Positions 11,722 through 62,441 of a stretch of 64,000 nt of DNA are shown here, one piece after another. The first letter of the stretch is position 1, and every line of letters begins with the position of its first letter. A model generated the notes under the pieces. That model had not been told where the DNA came from. It did no database searches and saw only the letters and a list, made by a program, of their open reading frames with translations. This DNA comes from a bacterium. Lineage in GTDB: Bacteria; UBA8248. The stretch lies in the NCBI GenBank assembly GCA_963692865.2, contig OY843592.1:1773690-1837689 (forward strand), given 5' to 3'. The translations under genes were made by a program, and so were the position numbers.

Positions 11722-11797
11722 TGGTGGAGCTGAGGGGGATCGAACCCCTGACCTCATGACTGCCAGTCATGCGCTCTCCCAGCTGAGCTACAGCCCC
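11722..11797 (-). tRNA. tRNA-Ala(GGC): tRNA-Ala (anticodon GGC)
   Basis: The reverse complement reads GGGGCTGTAGCTCAGCTGGGAGAGCGCATGACTGGCAGTCATGAGGTCAGGGGTTCGATCCCCCTCAGCTCCACCA. It folds as a cloverleaf with anticodon stem CATGA/TCATG and loop CTGGCAG. It has the G3:U70 Ala identity pair, a GGTTCGATCC T-arm and an encoded CCA. Confidence 0.95.
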
Positions 11798-50285: not shown

Positions 50286-50294
50286 TTGTATCGA

Positions 50295-51767
50295 CCTTCT
50301 CTAATCGGGTAGGGCAAGTCAAGTTCCTCTCCCCTGGTTCTGTCAGACCTGTTCCGCCTTTGGCTGCAGATGACGCTCCATGGGGGTCTCGCTTCTCTTC
50401 GTGATCGACTCCCGAGCCGGGGGCCGTCAACAGGATGGGATCGGAGAACGAAGTGGAACAATCTTTCCTGCGCCCTCGCATCGTCACCGACGCAGCGGGG
50501 CTAGGCCGACAGCGTACTCACTTCGTCCCTCGTCCCCACGGGAGCATCCCCCGCCGAGGCGGAAGCTACAGGGTTTGTCTGTGGTCCTCCTTCTTCAGTG
50601 TCTCGACCTCAGGCAGCCGAAGCATCCGCGCCGTCGCGCTTCCAGCGGAACTCACTGCCATCCATCCACATGCGGTGCATGATGACGCCGAGCCGGCGGG
50701 CGAGCGCAACCTTCGCGCGCGACTTGCCGCGACGCTTCGCCACACCCATCGCCCAGGCTTTCAGCCATGACCACCGCGTCGTGCGCCCGAGCAAGACGTT
50801 GGCGGCTTCGTAGAGCGCCGCGCGCATCATCGCGTCGCCGCATTTGGAGATGCTTCCCGTGCGGTCGACCTCTCCGGATTGCCATTTGCGAGGCACAAGC
50901 CCGAAGTGCGCGCCCACCGAGCGCGAGCGCGCAAAACGCGATGGCACGTCGACGCTCGCCCGGAAGGTGAGCGCCGTCACCGGACCCACGCCGGGAACCG
51001 TCATCAGGCGCCGGCAGACCGGATCGGCTCGCGCCGCCTCCAGCATCATCCTGTGCAGCCGGACGTATTCCGCCAGCAGCGCAGAGCGAGCCCGCAGCAT
51101 CGGCGCCACCAGGCGCGCCAACTCCGGGCGCTCCGCGACCAGACACCCTACACGCGCCTCCAAACCGCGACGGGTGACCTTGCCCATCTTCAGCCCGAAG
51201 TTGCGCAGCGTGCCCCGGATGTGGGCCTCGGCGTCGCACAACTGCTTCAGCATGAACCTGCGGTTGGCGAGGAGCATGCGTTTTTCCTGGCTCGACACCG
51301 TCTTCACGTGCACCGGGCGAATCAGGTTCGCGCGAACCAACTGGGCGATGCCGCGCGCGTCGTCGCGGTCGCTCTTGTTCACCGTCGCCGAGAGCACCGC
51401 CTTCAGTTGCCGCGTCTCGGCGCAAACCACCGGGAACCCGGCCTCGGCCAGACCGTCATGGAGCCACTGTGACAGCGGCCCCGCCTCCAGGCAGATGCGC
51501 GTTACGCCGAAGGCCAGTCCGGTGAAGAACGCCACGAGGGCCGCGGGTTCGCTCGCGACCTTCGCCTCCCGGACGATCCCGCCCTCCGCGTCCACCACGC
51601 ACACACTCGTCCACTCCAACGACACGTCGAGTCCTGCAAAGTAGTTCATGACTGCTCCTCCTGCGGGCGCGTAGAGACCGGACCATCCCGGCCTCGCCTC
51701 GAATCATAAGGCAGAGGAACATCCGCCACACGCGGTAGTTCGCAGACCAACCCGATTACCCCATCTT
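50295..51767 (-). mobile_element. IS110-family insertion sequence, copy 2 (identical to 6486-7958)
   Basis: Exact identity over 1473 bp, including all nested ORFs in the track. Same orientation as copy 1. Confidence 0.9.
50609..51649 (-). CDS. IS110 family transposase (copy 2)
   Basis: The 346-aa translation is identical to that of 6800-7840. Confidence 0.9.
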   Translation of the reverse strand: MNYFAGLDVSLEWTSVCVVDAEGGIVREAKVASEPAALVAFFTGLAFGVTRICLEAGPLSQWLHDGLAEAGFPVVCAETRQLKAVLSATVNKSDRDDARGIAQLVRANLIRPVHVKTVSSQEKRMLLANRRFMLKQLCDAEAHIRGTLRNFGLKMGKVTRRGLEARVGCLVAERPELARLVAPMLRARSALLAEYVRLHRMMLEAARADPVCRRLMTVPGVGPVTALTFRASVDVPSRFARSRSVGAHFGLVPRKWQSGEVDRTGSISKCGDAMMRAALYEAANVLLGRTTRWSWLKAWAMGVAKRRGKSRAKVALARRLGVIMHRMWMDGSEFRWKRDGADASAA

Positions 51768-51893: not shown

Positions 51894-53606
51894 CTACGCC
51901 CCCTCCGCGATTGCGCTCGCGGCGTCGAGGCCGGCGACGACGCGGTTCTTCTCGCGCACGACCCGCGTGTATATGACTCTGCCCGCGTCGCTCCCGGGGC
52001 CGCGTTCCACGAGATTCTCGATGCACCGGAGGCCGGGAAGCCGGAACGCGCCGCTCGCCGGGTCGTGGTCGAACGGCCCCGCCAGCGTGTAGAGCGCGGG
52101 GTTCACCGCGTGGCTCATGTCGAGCAGCGCGCGGCCCGCGCGGGCGGCGTCGATGCCGGCGAGCCTCGCGTTCAGCGCCGCGCAGGCTTTGGCGAAGCGC
52201 GCCCCCGCCTCGCTGAGATCGCCCAGGTCCACCGCGTCGCCGCCCAGTGATTCGAGCCGCTCTATCTCCTCGTTCACGACGGCGGCGGTCGCGGCGTGGT
52301 TCAGGGGGATTCGCTCCAGGGCGCAAAGCTCGTGGAGCGCGCCCGCGTAGAGGCGGCAGTGTTCGGCGAGCAAGTCCTTGTCCATCTTGTCGAGCGTGTC
52401 GTCGGGGTGGTGCCAGTACTCGGGAAAGCCGCTCTCGGGGTGGTCCTTCCGGAGGTCGGGGTGGCCGGGCGGGAGGACGGGCAGGAAGGAGAACGAGGGA
52501 ACCCCCACCCCCCACAGCGACTGGTCGGCCATCTTGCGGGGGTGGTCGGGCCGCGTATCCTGGCCGCCGATGCGCGCGACGGCGTCCCGCACCCAGTCGC
52601 GGACGTCCGCCGTGGAGAAGGGGCGGTAGAGCGTCGCGCCCTTACAGCCCGGCTGGTCGATGTTGAGATACGCCGCGCAGTTCCGGCGCAGTTCGCGGAA
52701 GGCGTGGTCCGCGTACCAGGTGGAGCCGGAGAAGCGCCCGTGCGAGTGGCCGTTCCACCAGGCGACCTTGAGGCCGCGCCTGAGTTCGCCCCGCATCTCG
52801 TGCGCGATCCGCGCGAGCTCCATGAGCGCCGCGTCGCCCGCCGCGTTGTCGTTGGCCCCGACGTGCCAGGAGTCGATGTGCCCGCCGGCGAGGACGTACT
52901 CCTCGCTGCCGCTGCCGGGCGCGATGCTCGCCACGGGCATGAGCGTCTCGCGCCAGGCGGTGTCCGTCTCGGCGAAGACGCGGAGATTCACCTCTTCTCT
53001 CCTTTTCAGGCGCTCCAGCAGCCCCGCGCCCTGTTCGCGCGACAAGGTGACGACGGGCGTCTTCGGCAGCCGCGCGATGCTTTCGGGCGTCGGCGCGCCC
53101 CAGATGGTGGAGACGGTGAGTTCGTGCGCGTTGCCTTTATTGACGTAGACCTGCGCGACCGCCCCGCGCCGCTCGAAGTGATGGAAGCGCCCGGGGCTCA
53201 GCATCCCCTCCGCCACGACGACGCGCCCCGCGACGGGGAGTTCCCCCGACGGCCCCGTATAGAAAGGATCGGTGAAGGGCGTATCGGGCGCGCCGGCCTC
53301 GCCTGTATAAACGGCCTGGCCCCTCGCGCCGGCCTCCCCCGCGGAGGCGCCGAAGACGGCCGTGATGGCGGGAATGCGCTCCTCCTCCCCGCCCGCTCCC
53401 GTGACGACCAGCGCCGCCGCGCCGGGTATGCTGATGAGCGATTCGAACGCGTGGACTTCCACGTCGATCCCGAGCGCGGCGAGCTCCGCCTCGACGTAGC
53501 GCACGGCCTCGTTCTCGCCCTCAGAGCCGGTGTAGCGCTCCCACCGGTAGATGCCCTCCAAATTTCGCCACAGGGAATCGGCGTTCACTTTCTCGCGAGC
53601 GGACAT
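51894..53606 (-). CDS. M28-family metallopeptidase with PA-type insert
   Basis: 570 aa. ..VLAGGHIDSWHVGANDNAAGDAALMELAR.. and ..WWNGHSHGRFSGSTWY.. are M28 zinc-ligand regions. Confidence 0.75.
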   Translation of the reverse strand: MSAREKVNADSLWRNLEGIYRWERYTGSEGENEAVRYVEAELAALGIDVEVHAFESLISIPGAAALVVTGAGGEEERIPAITAVFGASAGEAGARGQAVYTGEAGAPDTPFTDPFYTGPSGELPVAGRVVVAEGMLSPGRFHHFERRGAVAQVYVNKGNAHELTVSTIWGAPTPESIARLPKTPVVTLSREQGAGLLERLKRREEVNLRVFAETDTAWRETLMPVASIAPGSGSEEYVLAGGHIDSWHVGANDNAAGDAALMELARIAHEMRGELRRGLKVAWWNGHSHGRFSGSTWYADHAFRELRRNCAAYLNIDQPGCKGATLYRPFSTADVRDWVRDAVARIGGQDTRPDHPRKMADQSLWGVGVPSFSFLPVLPPGHPDLRKDHPESGFPEYWHHPDDTLDKMDKDLLAEHCRLYAGALHELCALERIPLNHAATAAVVNEEIERLESLGGDAVDLGDLSEAGARFAKACAALNARLAGIDAARAGRALLDMSHAVNPALYTLAGPFDHDPASGAFRLPGLRCIENLVERGPGSDAGRVIYTRVVREKNRVVAGLDAASAIAEGA

Positions 53607-53639
53607 GGCGTCTCCATATAAAAAGGCGCGCGGCGCGCG

Positions 53640-54370
53640 CGGGGTATATTCACTCCCCTCTTGGGGGGTGTTGTTGAAAAACCTATCCCTCTCGCATCAA
53701 CCACGTTTTACCCGTAGGTCGGACATATATGTCCGACATAGTATGCGGCCCCTACAAAACCATCGCGCGGGCCGCAGGATCGTTGGAAAAGTCCTCCTCG
53801 CGCGGATTGACCACCGCCGCGCGCGGCGTATGTTCACTCCCCCCTTGGGGGGGTAATCTCGTAACACGCGAGATATGCAATCACTCCCCCCTTGAGGGGG
53901 AGTAGCAGAAGCCGAGCGGTTTGTGCGAAGGCTGATGCGTGGGGGGACAAACGCGAGTGAGGAACGAGCGTTTGCATAAGCCATTGAGAAACACATCTGC
54001 TCGCAATTTCTCGCTCATCGCTCGAAATTGACCCCCCACCGGTTCGGTTTCGGGAAAAACCCCCTCACCTCACCGTCGGTCTTCCCCGAGGGAGACCGAC
54101 CCTCAAGGGGGGAGTGGTTCTTCTTTCTCGTCTGTCGGTCACATTCGCCGAATCGCGAAATCAAGTTTCGAAAACCCCATTCTAGTACACCGTCGGCGGA
54201 AAACCGAGCGCGGCCGGGCGTTGCGGGCGGCGGCGCTTCGGGGGAGAATCACCGAAACGGATTCCCGTCCATCCGGGGCTGTTGAAAAACCCCTCGTCGG
54301 GGGCGTCGCCTTTACCCCCTTGTCGGGGGGGGGGGGGCTTTTTCAACAAAACCCATCCGGGGGAACGCTC
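53640..54370. repeat. REP-like hairpin cluster
   Basis: Contains TTGTTGAAAAACC..CTCTCGCATCAACCACGTTTTACCCG plus the palindrome GTCGGACATATATGTCCGAC (53718-53737). It also has CACTCCCCCCTTG(A)GGGGG modules. The hairpin GTCGGTCTTCCCCGAGGGAGACCGAC (54075-54100) and a G13 tract (54325-54337) are present too. Confidence 0.75.
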
Positions 54371-54374
54371 ACTC

Positions 54375-54782
54375 ATGTGGCGGAAGATATCCAGGCCGTT
54401 CTTCCTGACGCTCGGCTGCGTCTGTCTGGCCCTGGGCTTCATCGGCCTGCTGCTGCCCGTCCTGCCGACGACGCCCTTCATCCTGCTGGCGGCGTTCGCC
54501 TTCTCGAAGAGCTCGGAGCGGCTCCACGCCTGGCTGCTGAATCACAAACTCTACGGGCCGCTCATCACCAACTGGCAGCGCCACGGCGTCATCCGCCCCC
54601 GGGCGAAGTGGACTTCGGTCTCGCTCATCGCCGTGCTCGCGGGGCCATCGATCTACCTCCTGAGCGCGCCGGCATACGCGAAGATTCTGCTCGCCGCCGT
54701 CTGCGCGTGCGTGGTCTGCTTCATCGTTACCAGGCCGGGGGCGATTCCGGGGGAGGGGGGAGATCCCCAAAATCGAACGTAG
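54375..54782 (+). CDS. DUF454 (YbaN-family) inner-membrane protein
   Basis: In-frame ATG at 54375. ..LGFIGLLLPVLPTTPFILLAAFAFSKSSERLHAWLLNHKLYGPLI..W.. is the YbaN signature. Confidence 0.75.
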   Translation: MWRKISRPFFLTLGCVCLALGFIGLLLPVLPTTPFILLAAFAFSKSSERLHAWLLNHKLYGPLITNWQRHGVIRPRAKWTSVSLIAVLAGPSIYLLSAPAYAKILLAAVCACVVCFIVTRPGAIPGEGGDPQNRT

Positions 54783-55030
54783 GCGTCGTAGGGACAGGCC
54801 TCCGTGCCTGTCCTGCCCTCCGTGGTTGTCCTTTTTCGGACAGGCACGGAGGCCTGTCCCTACAGTCGTCATTCGGAGCGTAGGGGTCGCATAGTATGCG
54901 ACCCGCATATCGAACGGGGAGGGCCGCATGATATGTCGGACATATATGTCCGACCTACACCGACACCCGAACGGCGCCTGTCCTGATTTCAACCATCCTG
55001 CAAAAGGACAACCACGGAGGGTTGTCCCTA
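54783..55030. repeat. REP-like hairpin cluster
   Basis: Contains GTAGGGACAGGCCTCCGTGCCTGTCC and its inverted partner GGACAGGCACGGAGGCCTGTCCCTACA. It also has GGGTCGCATAGTATGCGACCC and GGGCCGCATGATATG fused to GTCGGACATATATGTCCGAC (54935-54954). GGACAACCACGGAGGGTTGTCCCTACA is present as well. Confidence 0.75.
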
Positions 55031-55085
55031 CATTTCGTTTCGCATGAACCTGTCCAGCCACCCGCCCTATATAAAGGAGAAACCC

Positions 55086-55475
55086 ATGAACGAGGAACGC
55101 TACGAGCGCGGGCTCGCCGTCCGCAAATCACTCGGCATCTACGGGGAGGACGGCCTCGCGGGCGCGTTCACCGAGTTGAACGAACTCGCGCCGACGCACG
55201 CGCGCGCCATCGTGGAGTACGTCTTCGGCGAGTGCTGGAGCCAGCCCCTGCTCGACAACCGGACGCGCGAGATGATGATCGTCGCCGCCGCCGCCGCCCA
55301 GGACCTCACAGGCGAGGTGGAGATCCACTCACGCGGCCTGCTGAACCAGGGGCTGAGTCCCGAGGAACTCGTCGAGGGCGTCGTCTCGCTCTGCCCCTAC
55401 ATCGGCTTCCCGAAGACGAACCACGCTCTCGCCGCCGCCAAGCGCGCGATCGGGCAACACGCGGCGGGAGCGTAG
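55086..55475 (+). CDS. carboxymuconolactone decarboxylase family protein
   Basis: ATG at 55086, 8 nt after GGAG. The layout ..FGECWSQPLLDNRTREMMIVAAAAAQD.. plus ..LCPYIGFPKTNHAL.. is typical of CMD (gamma-CMD-like). Confidence 0.7.
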   Translation: MNEERYERGLAVRKSLGIYGEDGLAGAFTELNELAPTHARAIVEYVFGECWSQPLLDNRTREMMIVAAAAAQDLTGEVEIHSRGLLNQGLSPEELVEGVVSLCPYIGFPKTNHALAAAKRAIGQHAAGA

Positions 55476-55668
55476 GCGGGCGGGCCGCGTCGTCATTCGA
55501 GGGGGTTCGTGGGGGCAATCCCTCCCCGGGACCGCCCCGCCGTTCGCGAACGGCCCTGCCCGGCGGAGAAACGGGCGCTCCCTTGCAGGGGTCGCAGGGG
55601 CCGCATGATATGTCGGACGCATATGTCCGACCTGCGGGTGAGGCGATGGCTTTGTCGAGGGGTCGTCC

Positions 55669-56241
55669 CTACGGGTCCCGCGCGGGCGGCGCGGCGGTGC
55701 GGCGGATGAGCTCCCGGAGCGCCTCGCGCTGGGCGCTCTGCTCCTCGCGCTGGCTTTCCTGGGCCTTGCTCTGGGCGTTCAGCGCCGCCATGGTTGCTTC
55801 GTGGGCCGCCATCGTTTCTTCGTGGGCCGCCATGGTTGCTTCGTGGGCCGCCATGGCTTCGCGGTGCCGTTCGCTCTGCTCCTCGCGCTCGGCTCTGAGC
55901 GCGGCCATGGTTTCTTCGTGGGCCGCCATGGTTTCTTCGTGCGCGGCCATGGTTTCCTCGTGGGCGGCCATGGCTTCGCGGTGTCGGCCCTCCATCGCCG
56001 CCATGGTTTTTTCATGGGCGGCCATGGTCTCGCGGTGCAGGTTGTCGCGGTGGATCGCGGCGCGGCGCATCATGTAGAGGCCGTAGGCGATCAGGGCGCA
56101 TTGCGCGGCCCCGACCAGGGCGGCGACCCACACGGCGGCCCGCTGGACGGCGAGGGCGGCCTGCTGCGCCGCGAGAGCGGCTTCCTGCAGGGTGAGGCTT
56201 GACTGCTGCACGGCGAGGCTTGCGGCTTCGTATTCCGTCAT
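55669..56241 (-). CDS. single-TM protein with tandem heptad (ETMAAHE) repeats
   Basis: ATG at 56241 with GGAG upstream. It has a TM helix AAVWVAALVGAAQCALIAYGLYMM. Then come about 10 copies of a 21-bp unit (GCCGCCATGGTTTCTTCGTGG on the + strand) in two blocks at about 55785-55865 and about 55902-56030. Confidence 0.6.
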   Translation of the reverse strand: MTEYEAASLAVQQSSLTLQEAALAAQQAALAVQRAAVWVAALVGAAQCALIAYGLYMMRRAAIHRDNLHRETMAAHEKTMAAMEGRHREAMAAHEETMAAHEETMAAHEETMAALRAEREEQSERHREAMAAHEATMAAHEETMAAHEATMAALNAQSKAQESQREEQSAQREALRELIRRTAAPPARDP

Positions 56242-56289
56242 TTCGTTTTCTCCTGCTACGGCGCGCATCCTCGTGGAGTAGTTCCCCCA

Positions 56290-56690
56290 GTATCGCCCGC
56301 GGCGGGGGGCAAGTCAAAGGCGCGGGACGGCGGGGGGGCGCGTCCGCATCATCCGGGCGGCGTCGTTTCGTTCCCCCCTCAAGGGCCTGTTGAAAAACCC
56401 GTCCCTCTCGCGTCAACCACGTTCTGCCCGCGGGCCGGACGTGTATGTCCGGCCCGCAAAACCATCGCCTCACCCGCAGGGGCCGTTCGAGAACGGCCCT
56501 GCCCGGCGGAGAAACGGGCGCTTCTTTGCAGGGGTCGTAGGGGCCGCATACCATGCGGCCCGCGTCAGGCGGCGAAAAAGGCCGGGCCGCATGGTATGCG
56601 CGGGACAACCCCTCTTCGGGGTCGTCCCGCTGCGCCTCCCGTGTTTGACTTCGCCAGCCTTGAGTTTCTCTCCTCCCCGCTCCGCAATCA
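56290..56690. repeat. REP-like hairpin cluster
   Basis: Contains TGTTGAAAAACCCGTCCCTCTCGCGTCAACCACGTTCTGCCCG and the variant palindrome GGGCCGGACGTGTATGTCCGGCCC (56432-56455). GGGGCCGCATACCATGCGGCCC is also present. Confidence 0.7.
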
Positions 56691-57339
56691 AGCCTTGACA
56701 AAACCGCGGGGATTCCCGCAAAGTGGGTCCGCGCGGCGCAATCGACGGGGTGAATGACCGGCGGACGCCGCCTCCGGCGAGGCGGCCTTTCCGCAAAAGG
56801 CCGGAACGGGCGGCAAATTCACCTTGACAAGACGCGGAAGATTGTAGGAATATCGTGGTTGCGACACGTCCCACGAGGTGCAGTCGACTTCGGGCTGCCC
56901 GCTGAATACAAGACGGCCCTCCCCGAGAGGGGCGAAATAGGCGGGAACCCACCTCAAGAACTTCTTACCTTGTGGATTGTGTCGCGACCGGCCCGGACTG
57001 CACGCGCGGGCGGCCGCGCGGGACGGCGCAACCGGGAGAACAGCGAGCGGCGCTCAGGCCGCCCGCAGACGCGAGGGGAAAGGAGGCTCATCGGACGAGA
57101 CGCGAACGCGTCGGGAAACGCCTGTACCGGAACCGGCTTTGCGGCACGATTCACGAGGCGCGGTCATCCCCCGGTATGACGGTGGAAAATGAGGACCCGA
57201 CTCCCACCTCTGACGGAACGGCCAAGCGGGCCCGTCTCCGTCGACGATCCTCCTGTGGATTGTATGCCGAAGCGGAACGGACGGCGCGGGCGACCCACCC
57301 GCCGTCCTCCGCTCCGCTTTCATAAAGCACACAACCGGT

Positions 57340-57678
57340 TTTACGGCCCGGTCGATAGCACAACCACCACCGATAAGCGCACGGCCTATACGGGAACTCT
57401 CACCTGTCCTGCGGCCGGTTCGTGCGCCACTACCATTACCGGCAGCGGCGATAGCCAGACGATTGCGGTAACCGGCTACAAGTTCACGGGAAGCCGACAG
57501 GCCAGTCCGGCTGTTACTGCGTCGGACGGCGTGAGCGGACGAGAGCGCCACGGTGGCGCCCGGCTCCGTCGCGGGCACGTTCGGCGTTACCGGAACCGAC
57601 AAGATGGGGACGCCGGACGACGCCACGGACGACGTCACCACCAGCTACGTGGGCGCGTTCGGCGCGCACAAGCAGTAG
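57340..57678 (+). pseudogene. decayed paralogue of the lipoprotein gene at 59032-61020
   Basis: One frame gives ..TLTCPAAGSCATTITGSGDSQTIAVTGYKFTG.. (compare ..FICTGDICGPTYTITAGKFTTLPPGYLF.. in the intact gene). After a frame change, 57535-57678 gives ..APGSVAGTFGVTGTDKMGTPDDATDDVTTSYVGAFGAHKQ*. That compares with ..GSAAGTFGVTGGKDDDAMSIIGAFGAHNTQQ*. The 5' leader and 3' flank are also homologous. Confidence 0.6.
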
Positions 57679-57829
57679 AACGAAGCGCGATCGCTTCCGG
57701 CTCCGGGGCCGGGGCGGACGCATGAAGGATGAAAGATGGAAGACGAAGGATGACGGGAAAGACGCGCTCCGGCGGCCGGAAGGCGACGGAAGCGGGAGCC
57801 GCGCGGATGAGGGAGAGGAAAGAAGAAAA

Positions 57830-57934
57830 GGGGGGTGCCCGTTGGTTGCTTCCCTCGTGATAGAGCAAACTGTACCGCTCCCTGTTTAGAGTTTGAGTCC
57901 TCGAGCCGGGAACGGGAACAAGCGGGCATCCCCC
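57830..57934 (+). ncRNA. conserved 3'-flank structured element, copy A
   Basis: The closing stem pairs GGGGGGTGCCCGTTG (57830-57844) with CAAGCGGGCATCCCCC (57919-57934). Internal conserved blocks are TTGGTTGCT, AGAGCAAA, GTACCG and AGAGTTTGAGTCCTC. It is homologous to 61227-61333. Confidence 0.4.
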
Positions 57935-57972
57935 ACTCCCCTTATACGGATTTTCCCGGCGTTTGGCAAGAC

Positions 57973-58037
57973 GGAAAAAGGGCCGTCCCGCCCTCCCCGG
58001 AGGCTTCGCTCCGAACGGGCGGGCGGTTCCTTTTTTT
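57973..58037 (+). terminator. intrinsic-terminator-like hairpin with flanking A- and T-runs
   Basis: GGAAAAAGGGCCGTCCCGCCC .. GGGCGGGCGGTTCCTTTTTTT forms a GC-rich stem followed by T7. The upstream A5 would allow bidirectional function. Confidence 0.45.
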
Positions 58038-58049
58038 CGCGCGTGAGGG

Positions 58050-58360
58050 CCGGGCCCGGCGCGATGATCCCGCAGGGGCCGCACCGAACGGCGCCCGTAG
58101 GGGTCGCATATCATGCGACCCGCATATCGAACGGGGAGGGCCGCATAATATGCGGCCCCTACGGTGAGATCCCGACCGGCCCGCAAGGGCTTTTTCAACA
58201 GCCCCCTCAAGGGGGGAGTGGTTGTTCGCCGCCCCTCCGGCAACGGGCCGCATGGTATGCGGCCCCTGCAAACAAATTGTCTCTCTCCGGCTTTTCCAAC
58301 AGCCCCCTCAAGGGGGGAGTGGTTGTATGCCTCGCGCGTGGCGGGATTCCCCCCCCCAGG
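58050..58360. repeat. REP-like hairpin cluster
   Basis: Contains GGGGTCGCATATCATGCGACCC, GGGCCGCATAATATGCGGCCCCTAC and GGGCCGCATGGTATGCGGCCCCTGC. Two copies of TTTT(T/C)CAACAGCCCCCTCAAGGGGGGAGTGGTTGT are also present. Confidence 0.75.
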
Positions 58361-58363
58361 GCC

Positions 58364-58409
58364 GAAGTTGCGCGCAAATCCAAATAGAAGTTGCGCGCAA
58401 ATCCAAATA
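58364..58409 (+). promoter_or_regulatory. tandem 23-bp direct repeat, each with the palindrome TTGCGCGCAA
   Basis: GAAGTTGCGCGCAAATCCAAATA occurs twice (58364-58386 and 58387-58409). It lies immediately upstream of a TTGACA hexamer. Confidence 0.45.
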
Positions 58410-58414
58410 AAGGC

Positions 58415-58444
58415 TTGACAAACCCGAAGAAATTGCCGCACTAT
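58415..58444 (+). promoter_or_regulatory. sigma70-like promoter candidate for the lipoprotein leader
   Basis: TTGACA (58415-58420), an 18-nt spacer, then CACTAT (58439-58444). A related AAGCCTTGACAAAACC is present at about 56688 upstream of the decayed paralogue. Confidence 0.3.
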
Positions 58445-58638
58445 CCCAAGAGTCAAGCGATGCGCGAGAGCGGCGACCCTTCGCCCGCCGATTACCACCC
58501 GCCCCTCATTCGCGGGGCCGGGGAGAGCGGGCGCGGAGCGGCGCTCAGGCGCATCGCGAGAAGGCGGCCCGGTAAAGCGAAGACCCGAAAGACGCCGGGC
58601 GCGCGCGGACGACATCACGAGGCAGAGGACTCAAACCC

Positions 58639-58677
58639 ATGAAGCGCTACGCCACAAAACCACCTCCAGTCTCGTGA
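58639..58677 (+). CDS. leader uORF 1 (MKRYATKPPPVS)
   Basis: ATG is 8 nt after GAGGAC (58625-58630). There are 12 sense codons, then TGA. It is a paralogue of uORF 2. Confidence 0.4.
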   Translation: MKRYATKPPPVS

Positions 58678-58813
58678 ATCATCCGGCGGCCGGCCCTTAG
58701 GCCCGCTCGCGCGGGCGGCGGGAACCGGTTTCCTTCCGGCGGCCCGCGCAAGGCGGCGGGCCCGGCGGGCGCCGGCGAAGCGGCAGACATCACGAGGCGG
58801 AGGACTCGAACCC

Positions 58814-58852
58814 ATGAAGAAGTGCGCCGTAAAACCCCCTCCAACCTCGTAA
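58814..58852 (+). CDS. leader uORF 2 (MKKCAVKPPPTS)
   Basis: It has the same SD context (ATCACGAGGCGGAGGACTCGAACCC-ATG) and the same length and frame logic, ending in TAA. One Pro codon change is synonymous (CCA to CCC). Confidence 0.4.
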   Translation: MKKCAVKPPPTS

Positions 58853-59031
58853 ACCGCCCAGTGAACGGCCCGGCGCCCCGGCGCCGGTTCGAAACGCATA
58901 CTCGAATGCCCGATAACGGAGGATGCCGAGAAAGTCGGAAACACCAGGAAAGGAGGTTCTTCAATCCACGAGTTTCGGTTTTGTTGTTGTCAAAGCTCTT
59001 TTTATCACGAGACTAGGAGGACTCAAAAGTG

Positions 59032-61020
59032 ATGAAGATCACCGGAAACAGAATCTTTTCATTCATGCTGGCGGCGGCCTTCGCGCTGACGCTGGCGGGC
59101 TGCGGCGGAGGCGGCGGCGGGACGCCGGCGGCAGCGAAGTGTCCTGACGGTCAGGTCGGGACGCCCCCGAACTGCACGACCCCGCCGCCGAAGGCGACGG
59201 ACGACGAGAAGTTCGCCGCGCGGGCGGCGAGAGACAGAGCCGAGACCGCCAGGATGGACGCGATGGCCGCGATGGGCGGCGACGACGGCTCGGTCGCCAT
59301 GACCGCAGCGGCCGCGACGGCGGCGGCCGGTTCCGCGAGCGCCGCGGCCGATTCCGCGAGCATGGCCATGGCCGGGCGGACGGACTACGCGAACGCCAAG
59401 AAGGCGAGCGATGAAGCCGCCGGCGAGAACACGAAGGCCGCGACCGCGAAGACGGCGGCCGACGGCGCGCAGACCGCTCTGGATGATGCCGTCACGGTCT
59501 ATAACGCGGCGGTGGACGGTCAGGACATCGAGACGAAGGCCGGCGCGCTCGCCATCAAGGCGGCCGCCGACACGCTCAGGGCCGCCGCCATGAAGGCGCA
59601 GGCGGACGCCGCGAAGGCGCAGGCGGACGCGGAAGCGGCGAGAGACGCGGCGAAGTCCGATGCGGCCGATGCGGCGAAGTACGCCGCCATGCACGTCCTG
59701 GGCTTGCTCAAGGCGGCGAACCCGGCGGACGATCCCGACACCGACGGTGATAACCAGAACGAAAACGCCAACCGCGTGAAGGCCGTGACGGCCTCCATGA
59801 CCTCGGCGGCAGGCGCAACCCCGGGTGATGGAAACCAGAGAGAAGGTGGAAGCAATATTACGGTCACCATTTCGTATAACCGTTCAGCGGCGGAAGATGA
59901 CGAAGACACGAAGGACGTGGATGAGTCCGCCCCGGTATATGCCTTCGCGGTTACAGGTCCCGTGGAAATTACGAACGACGAGTTCACAGCCGATACCCCC
60001 ACCGCCAAAAAGAAAGATCTGATGGACCTGGGCGGGTTCAAGGGTTTCGAGTTGGAGAAGACCACTGGCGGCAGCACCACTTATGTCCACGCCTACACGG
60101 ACATCACAGCGCAAAAGATACATACGACGCCGGTTGTGAAGACACAGGGCCCAGATGTTGGCAACCCTGCAAGTACCCAAGCCGACGCCACCGCGCCCTC
60201 CGGTTGGAGTCCCGGCAAAGGCGAAGCCCATTCCTTCATGGGAAAGTATGACCATGATAATGACACTGCAACTAAATCGCTTTCGGGCGTGTTCATCTGT
60301 ACCGGAGACATCTGTGGCCCCACATATACGATAACGGCCGGGAAATTCACGACGCTTCCCCCTGGCTACCTCTTCAGGCCCGATCCGGTGACGACGGGCG
60401 GGGAGCCCACGCTGGACAGCGATTTCACTCAAGATGGAGACCAATTCGATCGCGACGGCGATTTCCTGACCTTCGGCGTCTGGCTGCAAGTTCCGGACAC
60501 GACTGGCGCTAGCAACACCCCTGATAGTATATCGAGCGGCGTGTTCGCGAGCGGCAACGACCCGTACACGGTGACTGTGGCCCGTACGGGCACGGCGTCG
60601 TATAGCGGCCCGGCCGTGGGCGTCAAGTCGATGGGCGGCGCCGTGAGCCACGTGGACGGCACCGCCAGCCTGGATGTGAATTTCGGCACGAAACCCGAGG
60701 AGGGCGATGACACTTCCATGGGAACCATCGAAGGGACGGTCAGCTTGGGCGCGGACACGATCAGGCTCATCAGAAGCAACATCGATGCTGACGGCGGCGG
60801 TTTCAATGGAAATACGTCGATGGGACCGATAAACGACACAACCGCCGCGTATAAGTACAACGGCAAGTTCGGCGGCAGGTTCTATGGTCCGGACACGGAT
60901 TCCGATGGAGACGCCATCGAGCCCGGCTCCGCCGCGGGCACCTTCGGCGTAACCGGCGGTAAGGACGACGACGCCATGAGCATCATCGGCGCGTTCGGCG
61001 CGCACAACACGCAGCAGTAG
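59032..61020 (+). CDS. lipoprotein with C-terminal TbpB/fHbp-type beta-barrel domain (surface-lipoprotein-like)
   Basis: AGGAGGA SD. The lipobox is ..ALTLAGC followed by a Gly linker, then an Ala-rich helical region. The C-terminus YSGPAVG..ASLDVNFG..GTIEGTV..FNG..GKFGGRFYGP..EPGSAAGTFGV..IIGAFGAH matches the TbpB_B_D-like barrel pattern. The track start GTG 59029 is also possible. Confidence 0.65.
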   Translation: MKITGNRIFSFMLAAAFALTLAGCGGGGGGTPAAAKCPDGQVGTPPNCTTPPPKATDDEKFAARAARDRAETARMDAMAAMGGDDGSVAMTAAAATAAAGSASAAADSASMAMAGRTDYANAKKASDEAAGENTKAATAKTAADGAQTALDDAVTVYNAAVDGQDIETKAGALAIKAAADTLRAAAMKAQADAAKAQADAEAARDAAKSDAADAAKYAAMHVLGLLKAANPADDPDTDGDNQNENANRVKAVTASMTSAAGATPGDGNQREGGSNITVTISYNRSAAEDDEDTKDVDESAPVYAFAVTGPVEITNDEFTADTPTAKKKDLMDLGGFKGFELEKTTGGSTTYVHAYTDITAQKIHTTPVVKTQGPDVGNPASTQADATAPSGWSPGKGEAHSFMGKYDHDNDTATKSLSGVFICTGDICGPTYTITAGKFTTLPPGYLFRPDPVTTGGEPTLDSDFTQDGDQFDRDGDFLTFGVWLQVPDTTGASNTPDSISSGVFASGNDPYTVTVARTGTASYSGPAVGVKSMGGAVSHVDGTASLDVNFGTKPEEGDDTSMGTIEGTVSLGADTIRLIRSNIDADGGGFNGNTSMGPINDTTAAYKYNGKFGGRFYGPDTDSDGDAIEPGSAAGTFGVTGGKDDDAMSIIGAFGAHNTQQ

Positions 61021-61226
61021 AACGAGTAACGACGCCTTCCGGCTTCGGGGCCTTTGCAAGATGGCCCCGGGGCCGGGGCGGATGCATGAAGGATGAAGGA
61101 TGGAAGACGTAGGAAAGCGGGAAAGACGCGCTCCGGCGCCCGCGGGCGGCTGAAGGACGGAAAGAGAAGCGGATTACCGGCGAGAGAGAGTGAAGCGCCG
61201 GGGGAGCGGGGCGCGAGGGAAGAACC

Positions 61227-61333
61227 GGGGGTTACTCATTGGTTGCTCTACATCGTCGAGAGCAAAAGGTACCGGCCCATGCGACAGAGTTTGAGTCCTC
61301 TTCGGCGTGGCAAGGGAGCAATGAGTAACCCCC
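61227..61333 (+). ncRNA. conserved 3'UTR structured element, copy B
   Basis: A perfect 15-bp closing stem pairs GGGGGTTACTCATTG (61227-61241) with CAATGAGTAACCCCC (61319-61333). An inner hairpin is TTGCTCT/AGAGCAA. The AGAG-TTTGAGTC-CTCT hairpin (61286-61301) carries GTTTGAGTCCTC. Confidence 0.45.
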
Positions 61334-61399
61334 ACCGCTCTCTATACGCGCATTCCCCGGGTTTGGCAACCCCCCGAGCGGCGTGACCGCCCCGGCGCG

Positions 61400-61860
61400 G
61401 CAAGGGGACGGAAAAAGGCCGCCGCTCAGGATCGCGCCGTAGGTCGGACATATATGTCCGACATACCATGCGACCCGGCCTTTCCGCCCCTCCGCAACGG
61501 GCCGCATGATATGCGGCCCCTACAAACAAATTGTCTCTCTCCGGCTTTTTCAACCCCCCCCTCCCCGGGGAAGTCCGCCGCTCAGGATCGCGCCGTAGGT
61601 CGGACATATATGTCCGACATATCATGCGACCCGTTGCGGAGAGGGGCGGCGAACAATCACTCCCCCTCAAGGGGTTGTTGAAAAACCTGGCCCTCTCGGA
61701 TCAACCACGTTTTACCCGCAGGTCGGACATATATGTCCAACATATCATGCGACCCGTATTGTGAAGGCGAAAAAGCCGGGCCGCATGATATGCGGCCCCT
61801 ACAATAGAAACGACAATGACGGCGGTGGTCAATCCGAGCGAGGAGGGGGGGGCGCGGCGT
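61400..61860. repeat. REP-like hairpin cluster between convergent operons
   Basis: Contains three GTCGGACATATATGTCC(G/A)AC palindromes (61443-61462, 61599-61618, 61722-61741). Two GGGCCGCATGATATGCGGCCCCTACAA hairpins and TTGTTGAAAAACC modules are also present. Confidence 0.8.
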
Positions 61861-61865
61861 CCGGC

Positions 61866-62441
61866 TCACTTCAAGTCCGCGAACGGACCCGGGTCCGCCT
61901 CCAGCCCCAGGTAGTTCGCGCGGATGTGGTTCCACAGGGCGAGCTTCGTCCAGTCGGCGGTTTCGAGCACGCGGTAGTTCCGGTCGAAGAACGGGTTGGG
62001 GAGGTGGAAGGTCGTCATCTGCTCGCCGCGCCCGTTCAGGAGCGCCATCGAATAGCTCACCGGCGCGTGGCCCGCGACGGGCGGGTTCTGGTAAATCCTG
62101 AGCAGGGTCGCCCGCGCGCACCTTCTCCACCGCGCAAGCTCCGGCGGGCAGGTACGCCGCTCGTCGCCCCGGTGCTCGCCGATGCACAGGTGGAAGTGCC
62201 AGTCGCCGAGATCGACCGTGAGGTAGCCGTCGAGGTAGCCGATCCGGCGGGGCGGGTCTTTCATGCGGTATTCGAACACGGCCCCCTGGATGCAGTGCCC
62301 GAAGACGATCGACTCGTAGTGGTTATCGAGGAGGTCGCGGAGGAGGGTCTCGAGGAGTTCGCGTCCGGGCCGGAACTCCCAGACGGAATGGAGGCTGCCG
62401 TCGGGGCCGGTTTCTTCGCGGTATTGCGCGTCCGTCTTCAT
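61866..62441 (-). CDS. hypothetical protein (last gene of the TonB/ABC uptake operon)
   Basis: 191-aa ORF. Only a weak pattern-level resemblance to ChuX/HutX-type haem-utilisation proteins (..GYLDGYLTVDLGDWHFHLCIGE..), so the function is not asserted. Confidence 0.5.
   Translation of the reverse strand: MKTDAQYREETGPDGSLHSVWEFRPGRELLETLLRDLLDNHYESIVFGHCIQGAVFEYRMKDPPRRIGYLDGYLTVDLGDWHFHLCIGEHRGDERRTCPPELARWRRCARATLLRIYQNPPVAGHAPVSYSMALLNGRGEQMTTFHLPNPFFDRNYRVLETADWTKLALWNHIRANYLGLEADPGPFADLK

Follow-up and report, generated by a model that had tools for sequence, protein, structure and literature searches.

A conserved branched RNA element in the 3'UTRs of bacterial surface-lipoprotein units, with an invariant loop complementary to their ribosome-binding site

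A conserved RNA fold, a three-way junction of ~105 nt, is found at the end of each transcription unit captured from an expanded family of fast-evolving surface lipoproteins, and its invariant apical loop is complementary to the ribosome-binding site (RBS) of the same units. Two copies lie in the 64,000-nt stretch of DNA analysed here (the window), and the family comprises at least 72 copies in about a dozen metagenome-assembled genomes (MAGs) and in metagenomes. We are highly confident that the element is a genuine, selected structure of the sense-strand RNA (or at least of the single strand) in the 3'UTR. It is a previously uncatalogued RNA family whose kind is that of bacterial 3'UTR regulatory or structural RNAs, and the complementary invariant loop suggests that the lipoprotein units regulate themselves.

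Fold and folded strand of the element

The features of the lipoprotein locus in the window, all on the + strand, are as follows.

57330 to 57678, + strand: decayed lipoprotein paralogue 5' of copy A, left as central fragments and a C-terminal ...GTFGVTG...VGAFGAHKQ before the stop
57830 to 57935, + strand: copy A (type A) of the 3'UTR three-way-junction RNA, 3' of the decayed paralogue; covariance-model match of 123.2 bits
57973 to 58040, + strand: intrinsic terminator after copy A, a long G+C-rich hairpin and U7, from the fold of 57800-58042
58606 to 58682, + strand: leader hairpin module 1 (earlier "uORF1"), with the exact 12-mer complement at 58625-58636
58781 to 58857, + strand: leader hairpin module 2 (earlier "uORF2"), with the 12-mer complement at 58800-58811 (one mismatch); repeat D9
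59017 to 59028, + strand: lipoprotein gene RBS GGAGGACTCAAAA, with 11 nt complementary to the P3 loop and 3' stem; the same block occurs in all other type-B units
59029 to 61020, + strand: intact surface-lipoprotein gene (ORF) with lipobox LAGC and C-terminal barrel, carrying copy B in its 3'UTR
61046 to 61069, + strand: small post-stop hairpin CGGGGCC-N10-GGCCCCG, common to family members and element-less homologues
61227 to 61333, + strand: copy B (type B) of the same RNA, from sequence, fold, covariance-model match of 96.8 bits, family alignment and pair counts

The first-pass annotation had described the two copies as homologous elements closed by a 15-bp stem with pairing-preserving differences. 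The coordinates and sequences it gave match the letters of the window, and the stem differences, three A-T/T-A to G-C/C-G double changes and one G.U, were verified. Copy B starts with GGGGGTTACTCATTG and finishes with CAATGAGTAACCCCC. All 15 bp of its closing helix P1 (61227-61241/61319-61333) are paired, P2 is formed by 61243-61249/61259-61265, and P3 by 61272-61273/61314-61315, 61277-61282/61305-61310 and 61286-61289/61298-61301, with the apical loop UUUGAGUC at 61290-61297. Copy A starts with GGGGGGTGCCCGTTG and finishes with CAAGCGGGCATCCCCC; its P1 is 57830-57844/57919-57934, and the 3' arm contains one bulged G that had gone unmentioned. When the window copies were compared with dinucleotide shuffles, z-scores of -5.4 and -4.1 were obtained, and none of 200 shuffles folded as well. 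The 3' regions of the two copies align from the last lipoprotein codons to ~60 nt beyond the element. Because both flanks are partly homologous in this comparison, the element was evidently duplicated along with its unit.

We collected further copies with two patterns and a covariance model. The first pattern, made of three conserved interior blocks, gave 54 loci in about a dozen MAGs (one genome per species). The second left out the P3 loop and was scanned over metagenomes, where it gave 13 genuine loci; two further matches, L062 and L071, fall by chance in low-GC DNA of unrelated loci. The covariance model (R1) was built from 51 distinct sequences. It scores 72 copies at 97-132 bits and finds in the 64-kb window only the two copies already known. 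Fourteen copies are present in one MAG, and 9, 7, 5, 5, and 4 in others; by label, three MAGs are Nitrospinota, one is Candidatus Binatia, and the others are just "bacterium". The host lineage is uncultured and probably sponge-associated, and every genome of it has many such lipoprotein units. The copies fall into two main sequence types, type A with the arm GGGGGTTGCCCGTTG... (including the window copy at 57830) and type B with the arm GGGGGTTACTCATTG... (including the window copy at 61227), plus a minor type D. In our literature searches, we found no description of the element or of Slam lipoproteins in sponge symbionts.

The consensus obtained with RNAalifold on a MAFFT alignment is a three-way junction composed of P1 (15 bp), P2 (6 bp with a 13-nt loop), and a composite P3 (2+4+3+3 bp) capped by the loop UUUGAGUC. 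Standard pairs occupy 99.6% of 1681 alignment cells, and double-sided compensatory changes were found at 10 of the 33 pairs. None of 500 shuffles reached the observed pairing values, and when the 3' partners were slid by 1-3 columns as a control, pairing was only 38-62%. Many double changes trace to one event, the split of type A from type B; others, independent of it, are found in lower P3 and at P1 pair 18-102. The covariation first noticed between the two window copies still holds with 51-72 homologues. On the + strand, the wobble cells comprise 195 G.U and 1 A.C. Since the G.U cells would be mismatches on the minus strand, it is the lipoprotein sense strand that folds, and a minus-strand RNA is ruled out by this asymmetry. 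Both the covariation and the G.U asymmetry strongly support the earlier proposal of a structured element within the 3'UTR of the lipoprotein transcript, kept by compensatory changes.

The unpaired parts of the fold keep their sequence as well (GUACCG, GGGAAC, and both loops), and the interior blocks that had been called conserved from two copies are invariant or almost so throughout the family. Identity between copies is 91-95% in the element, where 25 of the ~108 positions are fixed by the search pattern, and ~50%, the alignment baseline, in the last 700 nt of the CDS and in the DNA past the element. In many copies, a purine-rich upstream flank and a pyrimidine-rich downstream flank can lengthen P1 by a further helix, P0. 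This helix is strong in one flank subtype (up to -22 kcal/mol) and marginal overall (-10.9, with shuffled flanks at -8.3 and non-cognate ones at -9.9).

The element was compared with known RNA classes. An Rfam scan to exclude a known family matched neither copy: with Rfam 15 at gathering thresholds, the whole window contained one tRNA at 11725 and nothing else, and in 57600-61900 at E<=10 no match overlapped either copy. ARAGORN called only tRNA-Ala at 11722-11797 in the window and no tRNA or tmRNA at either copy. The GAGUUUGAGUCCUC hairpin, with a stem of 3-4 bp and an 8-nt loop, is unlike a T-arm. A tRNA, tmRNA, or tRNA-like molecule is ruled out by these three results. A riboswitch was rejected as the element follows the last gene of the unit and the terminator is 85-110 nt away without overlapping P1. 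A target of a diversity-generating retroelement was rejected as well, the two paralogues being without adenine-specific differences.

Position in the lipoprotein transcription unit

Wherever a locus includes enough DNA 5' of the element, the stop codon of an ORF on the same strand precedes it by 60-120 nt. The upstream ORFs are 500-1350 aa long and end in ...GAFGAHR, ...MVGAFGVNKQ, or ...AAGAFGARKQ. The units hold one or two surface-lipoprotein genes, and the element is found after the last gene. In two-gene units, it is present 3' of the second gene only and the GAGGACTCA leader/RBS on the first gene only, the second gene having a different RBS, CCTTAGGGGGCAAATGATG. This pattern indicates that the element marks the 3' end of the transcription unit, not each gene or random intergenic DNA. 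The genes beyond the element are unrelated and in either orientation.

The second-gene RBS region is itself highly conserved: at L013 2692-2860, a conserved hairpin, CCGCCCGCCCCCTTCC...GGAAGGGGG, lies 5' of CCTTAGGGGGCAAATGATG, and equivalent intergenic regions occur in L016, L018, L025, L028, L030, L038, L043, L055, and L056. The second-gene proteins there belong to an MKMLK/RY...ASGCGGGGG class, and this RBS region is unrelated to the GAGGACTCA leader.

On the 3' side, most copies have a G+C-rich hairpin and T-run 84-111 nt beyond the element. The terminator-like hairpin proposed after copy A is real on folding (a hairpin and U7), though a simple scan did not call it, and its location beyond copy A places the element inside the transcript. 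The element sits between the small post-stop hairpin and the intrinsic terminator. At L020 7085-7270, 3' of a type-B element, we also observed three tandem repeats of ~95 nt, each ending in ...GTTTGACCCCCAGCCA, a sequence similar to GAGTAACCCCCAGCCA at the 3' end of P1 in the element; these repeats are followed by a TATAGC...TTTGGCAA block and then by a terminator.

No sigma-70-like site was called in 57600-59100 or 60950-61900. The same scan misses the conserved TTGACA box of the leader, and is therefore insensitive in the host organism. This conserved box is probably the promoter of the lipoprotein unit. In the window (58415-58445) and in L020 (4484-4515), the box is followed by ...TTGCCGCACTATC, 5' of a type-B leader. 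A candidate minus-strand promoter just 3' of the element, TTGCCA-N17-TATAAG, was rejected: the scan does not call it, and in copies of the best-conserved flank subtype TATACGCC pairs with the purine-rich flank on the 5' side, as the 3' strand of the resulting helix.

The family proteins open with a lipoprotein signal peptide, ...LTLAGCGGGGG, which contains the lipobox. The AlphaFold model of the window protein has a mean pLDDT of 68.8, with the C-terminal barrel mostly above 80, and the best Foldseek matches of the model were TbpB (E 3.7e-5) and the C-terminal domain of NHBA (TM 0.68). Pfam gave only a sub-threshold match to TbpB_B_D for the window protein. A Slam gene (PF04575) lies next to the closest homologues, P0002 and P0005, on their 3' side. 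With the lipobox, the TbpB/NHBA-type barrel, and Slam beside these homologues, the lipoproteins are probably TbpB/NHBA-like Slam substrates. Residues ~57-261 of the window protein, its N-terminal half, are predicted to form a long helical bundle, with weak Foldseek matches to trypanosome GARP, haptoglobin-haemoglobin receptor, ISG65, and factor H receptor.

Several repeats occur in the surrounding DNA. Around the lipoprotein locus, window positions 53600-62000 contain dense intergenic REP-like palindromes (GGTCGGACATATATGTCCGACC, GGGCCGCATGATATGCGGCCCC, GGGTCGCATATCATGCGACCC, and CCCCCTCAAGGGGGG) in both orientations. The ORF at 55669-56268 (-) contains 21-nt tandem repeats at 55717-55986 that encode a heptad-repeat protein (HEETMAA/HEATMAA), and a similar repeat-protein gene lies 3' of a lipoprotein homologue at L001 6140-6640. 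A 300-nt direct repeat of 100% identity is located at 6482-6781 and 50291-50590, with the two copies 43.8 kb apart.

Complementarity of the invariant loop to the leader

The 14-mer GAGUUUGAGUCCUC, which spans three stem pairs, the loop, and the 3' stem of the P3 cap, is invariant in 72/72 copies, including 15 that were retrieved without requiring it. At the other end of the unit, the RBS block GAGGACUCA shows no variation among about 30 units, and GAGGACTCA is present at the RBS in ~30/30 units with both ends captured. Type-A leaders read CAGGAGGACTCACTAAATG and type-B leaders CTAGGAGGACTCAAAAGTGATG, and the leader type tracks the element type in all of these ~30 units. The loop is complementary to GAGGACUCA(AA) over 9 nt in type A, 10 nt in type D, and 11-13 nt in type B. 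Two features of an icaR-type arrangement were thus present: the element lies in the 3'UTR of the same unit as the complementary Shine-Dalgarno (SD) sequence in ~30/30 cases, and the complementarity to the SD region is contiguous over 9-13 nt.

In the window, the 12-mer GTTTGAGTCCTC occurs on the + strand at 57891 (57891-57902, copy A) and 61289 (copy B), and its complement at 58625 (exact) and at 58800 and 59017 (one mismatch each). When up to one mismatch was allowed, the 12-mer and its complement gave five matches in 64 kb against 0.23 expected, all at the lipoprotein locus; this count confirms the 12-mer positions and their complementarity to the leader sites, as annotated earlier. The 9-mer GAGGACTCA was found in the two elements and at two leader sites, and nowhere else in the window.

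Two of the leader sites had been annotated as the SD regions of small upstream ORFs. This part of the annotation did not hold, as the reading frame is not kept and the ATG is often ACG or missing in other genomes; the segments look like repeated RNA hairpin modules, not coding uORFs. Type-B leaders carry 1-4 tandem modules of ~75 nt, of the form ATCACGAGGCnAGAGGACTCAAC, 5' of the RBS. Besides the window, such modules were seen in L020 (4685-5010), L056, L041, L060, and L064. In module 1, the predicted stem is UCACGAGGC/GUCUCGUGA with GAGG/CCUC, and ACUCAAAC lies in the apical region. The predicted module hairpins sequester the SD-like GAGG with an internal CCUC and leave ACUCAA(A/C) unpaired, so that a loop-loop contact with UUUGAGU is geometrically plausible.

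A second complementarity involves the P2 loop. In types A and D, this loop (CCUCGUGAU) and the 5' arm of the type-B modules (AUCACGAGG, directly 5' of the RBS-like block) are complementary. The match crosses types, pairing a type-A loop with a type-B leader, and type B has none; as a possible second contact with type-B modules, it is suggestive only, since a lone 9-mer match arises by chance fairly often (22% of shuffles). The 8-nt match between the type-B P2 loop and the L001-type leader was equalled by 45% of shuffles and is not above chance.

Chance and energy were also evaluated for the main complementarity. A shuffled element gave some 9-mer match to the 660-nt leader in 22% of trials. 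When duplex energies were calculated with duplexfold over all 40-nt windows of the 64 kb, several G+C-rich sites outranked the leader. RNAcofold of element and leader gave no net gain, loop-loop (kissing) contacts being beyond its model. The leader block and the loop are both invariant and show no covariation with each other. At L001 and L002, homologous lipoprotein genes share the RBS block and have no element. The proposal of an anti-RBS sequence is therefore partly upheld: the invariant loop, the invariant RBS block, and their complementarity support it, but the energies do not single out the leader.

Possible modes of action and known systems

We tentatively propose, at somewhat less than an even chance, that the element is a 3'UTR regulatory RNA with an anti-RBS loop and that it works in cis, or in trans once processed. 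Its action would be post-transcriptional, in units that share a conserved leader/RBS at one end and the element at the other, with a strongly diverged CDS between. The P3 apical loop and 3' stem (UUUGAGUC-CUC) would pair with the invariant RBS block GAGGACUCA(AA), and in type-B leaders the loop would also pair with the 2-4 upstream hairpin modules exposing ACUCAA. Pairing could occur inside one mRNA as a 5'-3' UTR contact or in trans through a released 3'UTR fragment, and the outcome would be less translation and/or a double-stranded substrate for an RNase. We infer both the loop-RBS pairing and the direction of its effect from the sequences of the two partners. Shared origin, the element having arisen as a partial inverted copy of the leader, could give the same complementarity, and type A would offer only 9 nt for pairing.

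A protein could instead read the same 3'UTR RNA, with the RBS complementarity being incidental or a relic of origin; we consider this rather unlikely, though it is the strongest of the alternatives. Candidates would be an RNase III-type enzyme acting on P0 and P1, a ProQ/FinO-like or other chaperone, or a stability or localisation factor. The evidence from covariation, strand, and position fits a protein reader equally well, and the single-stranded parts keep their sequence too (GUACCG, GGGAAC, and both loops), as parts touched by a protein typically do. The lengthening of P1 by the flanks in many copies, reaching -22 kcal/mol at most in one subtype, would suit such a reader, although P0 barely beats its controls overall. 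The energy calculations, which give leader pairing no preference, and the genes with the same RBS that have no element also favour it. However, a protein reader leaves unaccounted for both the exact complementarity between loop and RBS block in the same units and the restriction of this motif pair to the lipoprotein locus in the window, and no candidate protein is tied to the loci.

The first-pass annotation also considered a structure acting in DNA, and we regard this as improbable. The element would then provide homology blocks for exchange of lipoprotein cassettes, or an ssDNA hairpin for a recombinase or HUH enzyme. Conserved ends around a strongly diverged CDS would be expected from cassette exchange, the window does contain a decayed paralogue and duplicated leader fragments, and the leader and element 12-mers form an inverted repeat around the gene. 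Mere homology blocks, however, require neither compensatory changes nor a three-way junction. All 72 of 72 copies are intact, with 0 inverted or recombined junctions at the 12-mer, and no recombinase gene is consistently adjacent. G.T wobble is tolerated in ssDNA hairpins as well, but the strand asymmetry of the wobble cells, together with a position that is always in gene orientation and always between stop codon and terminator, disfavours a DNA-level structure. Integron attC sites, imperfect palindromes with the core sites RYYYAAC and GTTRRRY at their ends, lie in arrays next to intI; the arms GGGGGTTACTCATTG and GGGGGTTGCCCGTTG lack these core sites, which are absent from the element, and the loci are scattered, not in arrays.

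A selfish element of the MITE, Correia-like, or large REP kind, placed near lipoprotein genes by chance or insertion preference, can be set aside as very improbable: its length of ~105 nt, 15-bp inverted ends, multiple copies (up to 14 in one MAG), and surroundings rich in other REP-like palindromes would fit, but every copy with enough upstream DNA follows a lipoprotein gene, with orientation and distance from the stop codon constant, none was found at unrelated loci as a common dispersed repeat would be, only two occur in the 64-kb window, no direct repeats or target-site duplications are visible at the ends, the partly homologous flanks show an element duplicated with its unit, and the compensatory changes and G.U intermediates are confined to one strand.

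If the anti-RBS loop works, the 3'UTR regulatory RNA would constitute a family-wide 5'-3' UTR or 3'UTR-sRNA circuit that chooses which lipoproteins are made, and would bear on how symbionts manage variable surface repertoires. A more elaborate form, to which we give little credence, is mutual exclusion, in which the 3'UTR RNA of an expressed unit silences the leaders of the other 10-15 paralogous units. The invariant loop, with the second loop in types A and D, would pair with the RBS and the hairpin modules, and the symbiont would show one or a few variable surface lipoproteins at once without DNA rearrangement. Even with another function, the element is a clean new RNA family and a metagenome marker for lipoprotein units. 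To our knowledge, conserved functional bacterial 3'UTRs are few so far, and the known ones mostly concern single genes in model organisms. The traits that set the present family apart are its link to a multigene family, a conservation far above that of its genes, and an RBS complement in an invariant loop.

Among known systems, the UHS and DHS sequences of the Borrelia hermsii vsp/vlp genes and the Sma/Cla repeat 3' of Neisseria pilin loci provide DNA homology for gene conversion into an expression site. The present units resemble them in having conserved blocks at the RBS/5' end and 3' of variable surface genes, with decayed or partial copies nearby. We know of no strand-specific compensatory base-pair evolution in those sequences, and most copies here differ in possessing a full leader, a conserved TTGACA box, and a terminator. 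The Correia elements of Neisseria are multi-copy sequences of ~100-150 nt with inverted ends; they are co-transcribed with neighbouring genes and form long hairpins that RNase III can cut. Hundreds of unrelated sites carry them, in either orientation and flanked by target duplications. The element described here is likewise multi-copy, of similar length, and inverted at its ends. Unlike Correia elements, it is found in the 3'UTR of one gene family and in one orientation, with a branched fold and compensatory evolution.

In Streptomyces, s-SodF is an sRNA of ~90 nt that is processed from the sodF 3'UTR, without an evident promoter of its own, and represses sodN; its 19-nt match reaches the sodN RBS and links two isoenzymes (PMC3919588). 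The present element is similar in that a 3'UTR stretch is complementary to the 5' end/RBS of a functionally related mRNA. It differs in that the leaders it might target all belong to its own multigene family, the leader of its own unit among them, and a processed RNA is hypothetical here. In Staphylococcus aureus, the icaR 3'UTR pairs with the SD of its own mRNA, which blocks initiation and makes a substrate for RNase III (PMC3868564). As in icaR, a sequence in the 3'UTR is complementary to the SD region of the same mRNA. The icaR case is a long 3'UTR of a single gene with a short UCCCCUG motif that was tested experimentally (PMC3868564), whereas the present motif, known from sequence alone, is held in the loop of a three-way junction supported by covariation. 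Also unlike icaR, it ends many paralogous lipoprotein units per genome, with a complementarity of 9-13 nt that extends past the SD into the spacer.
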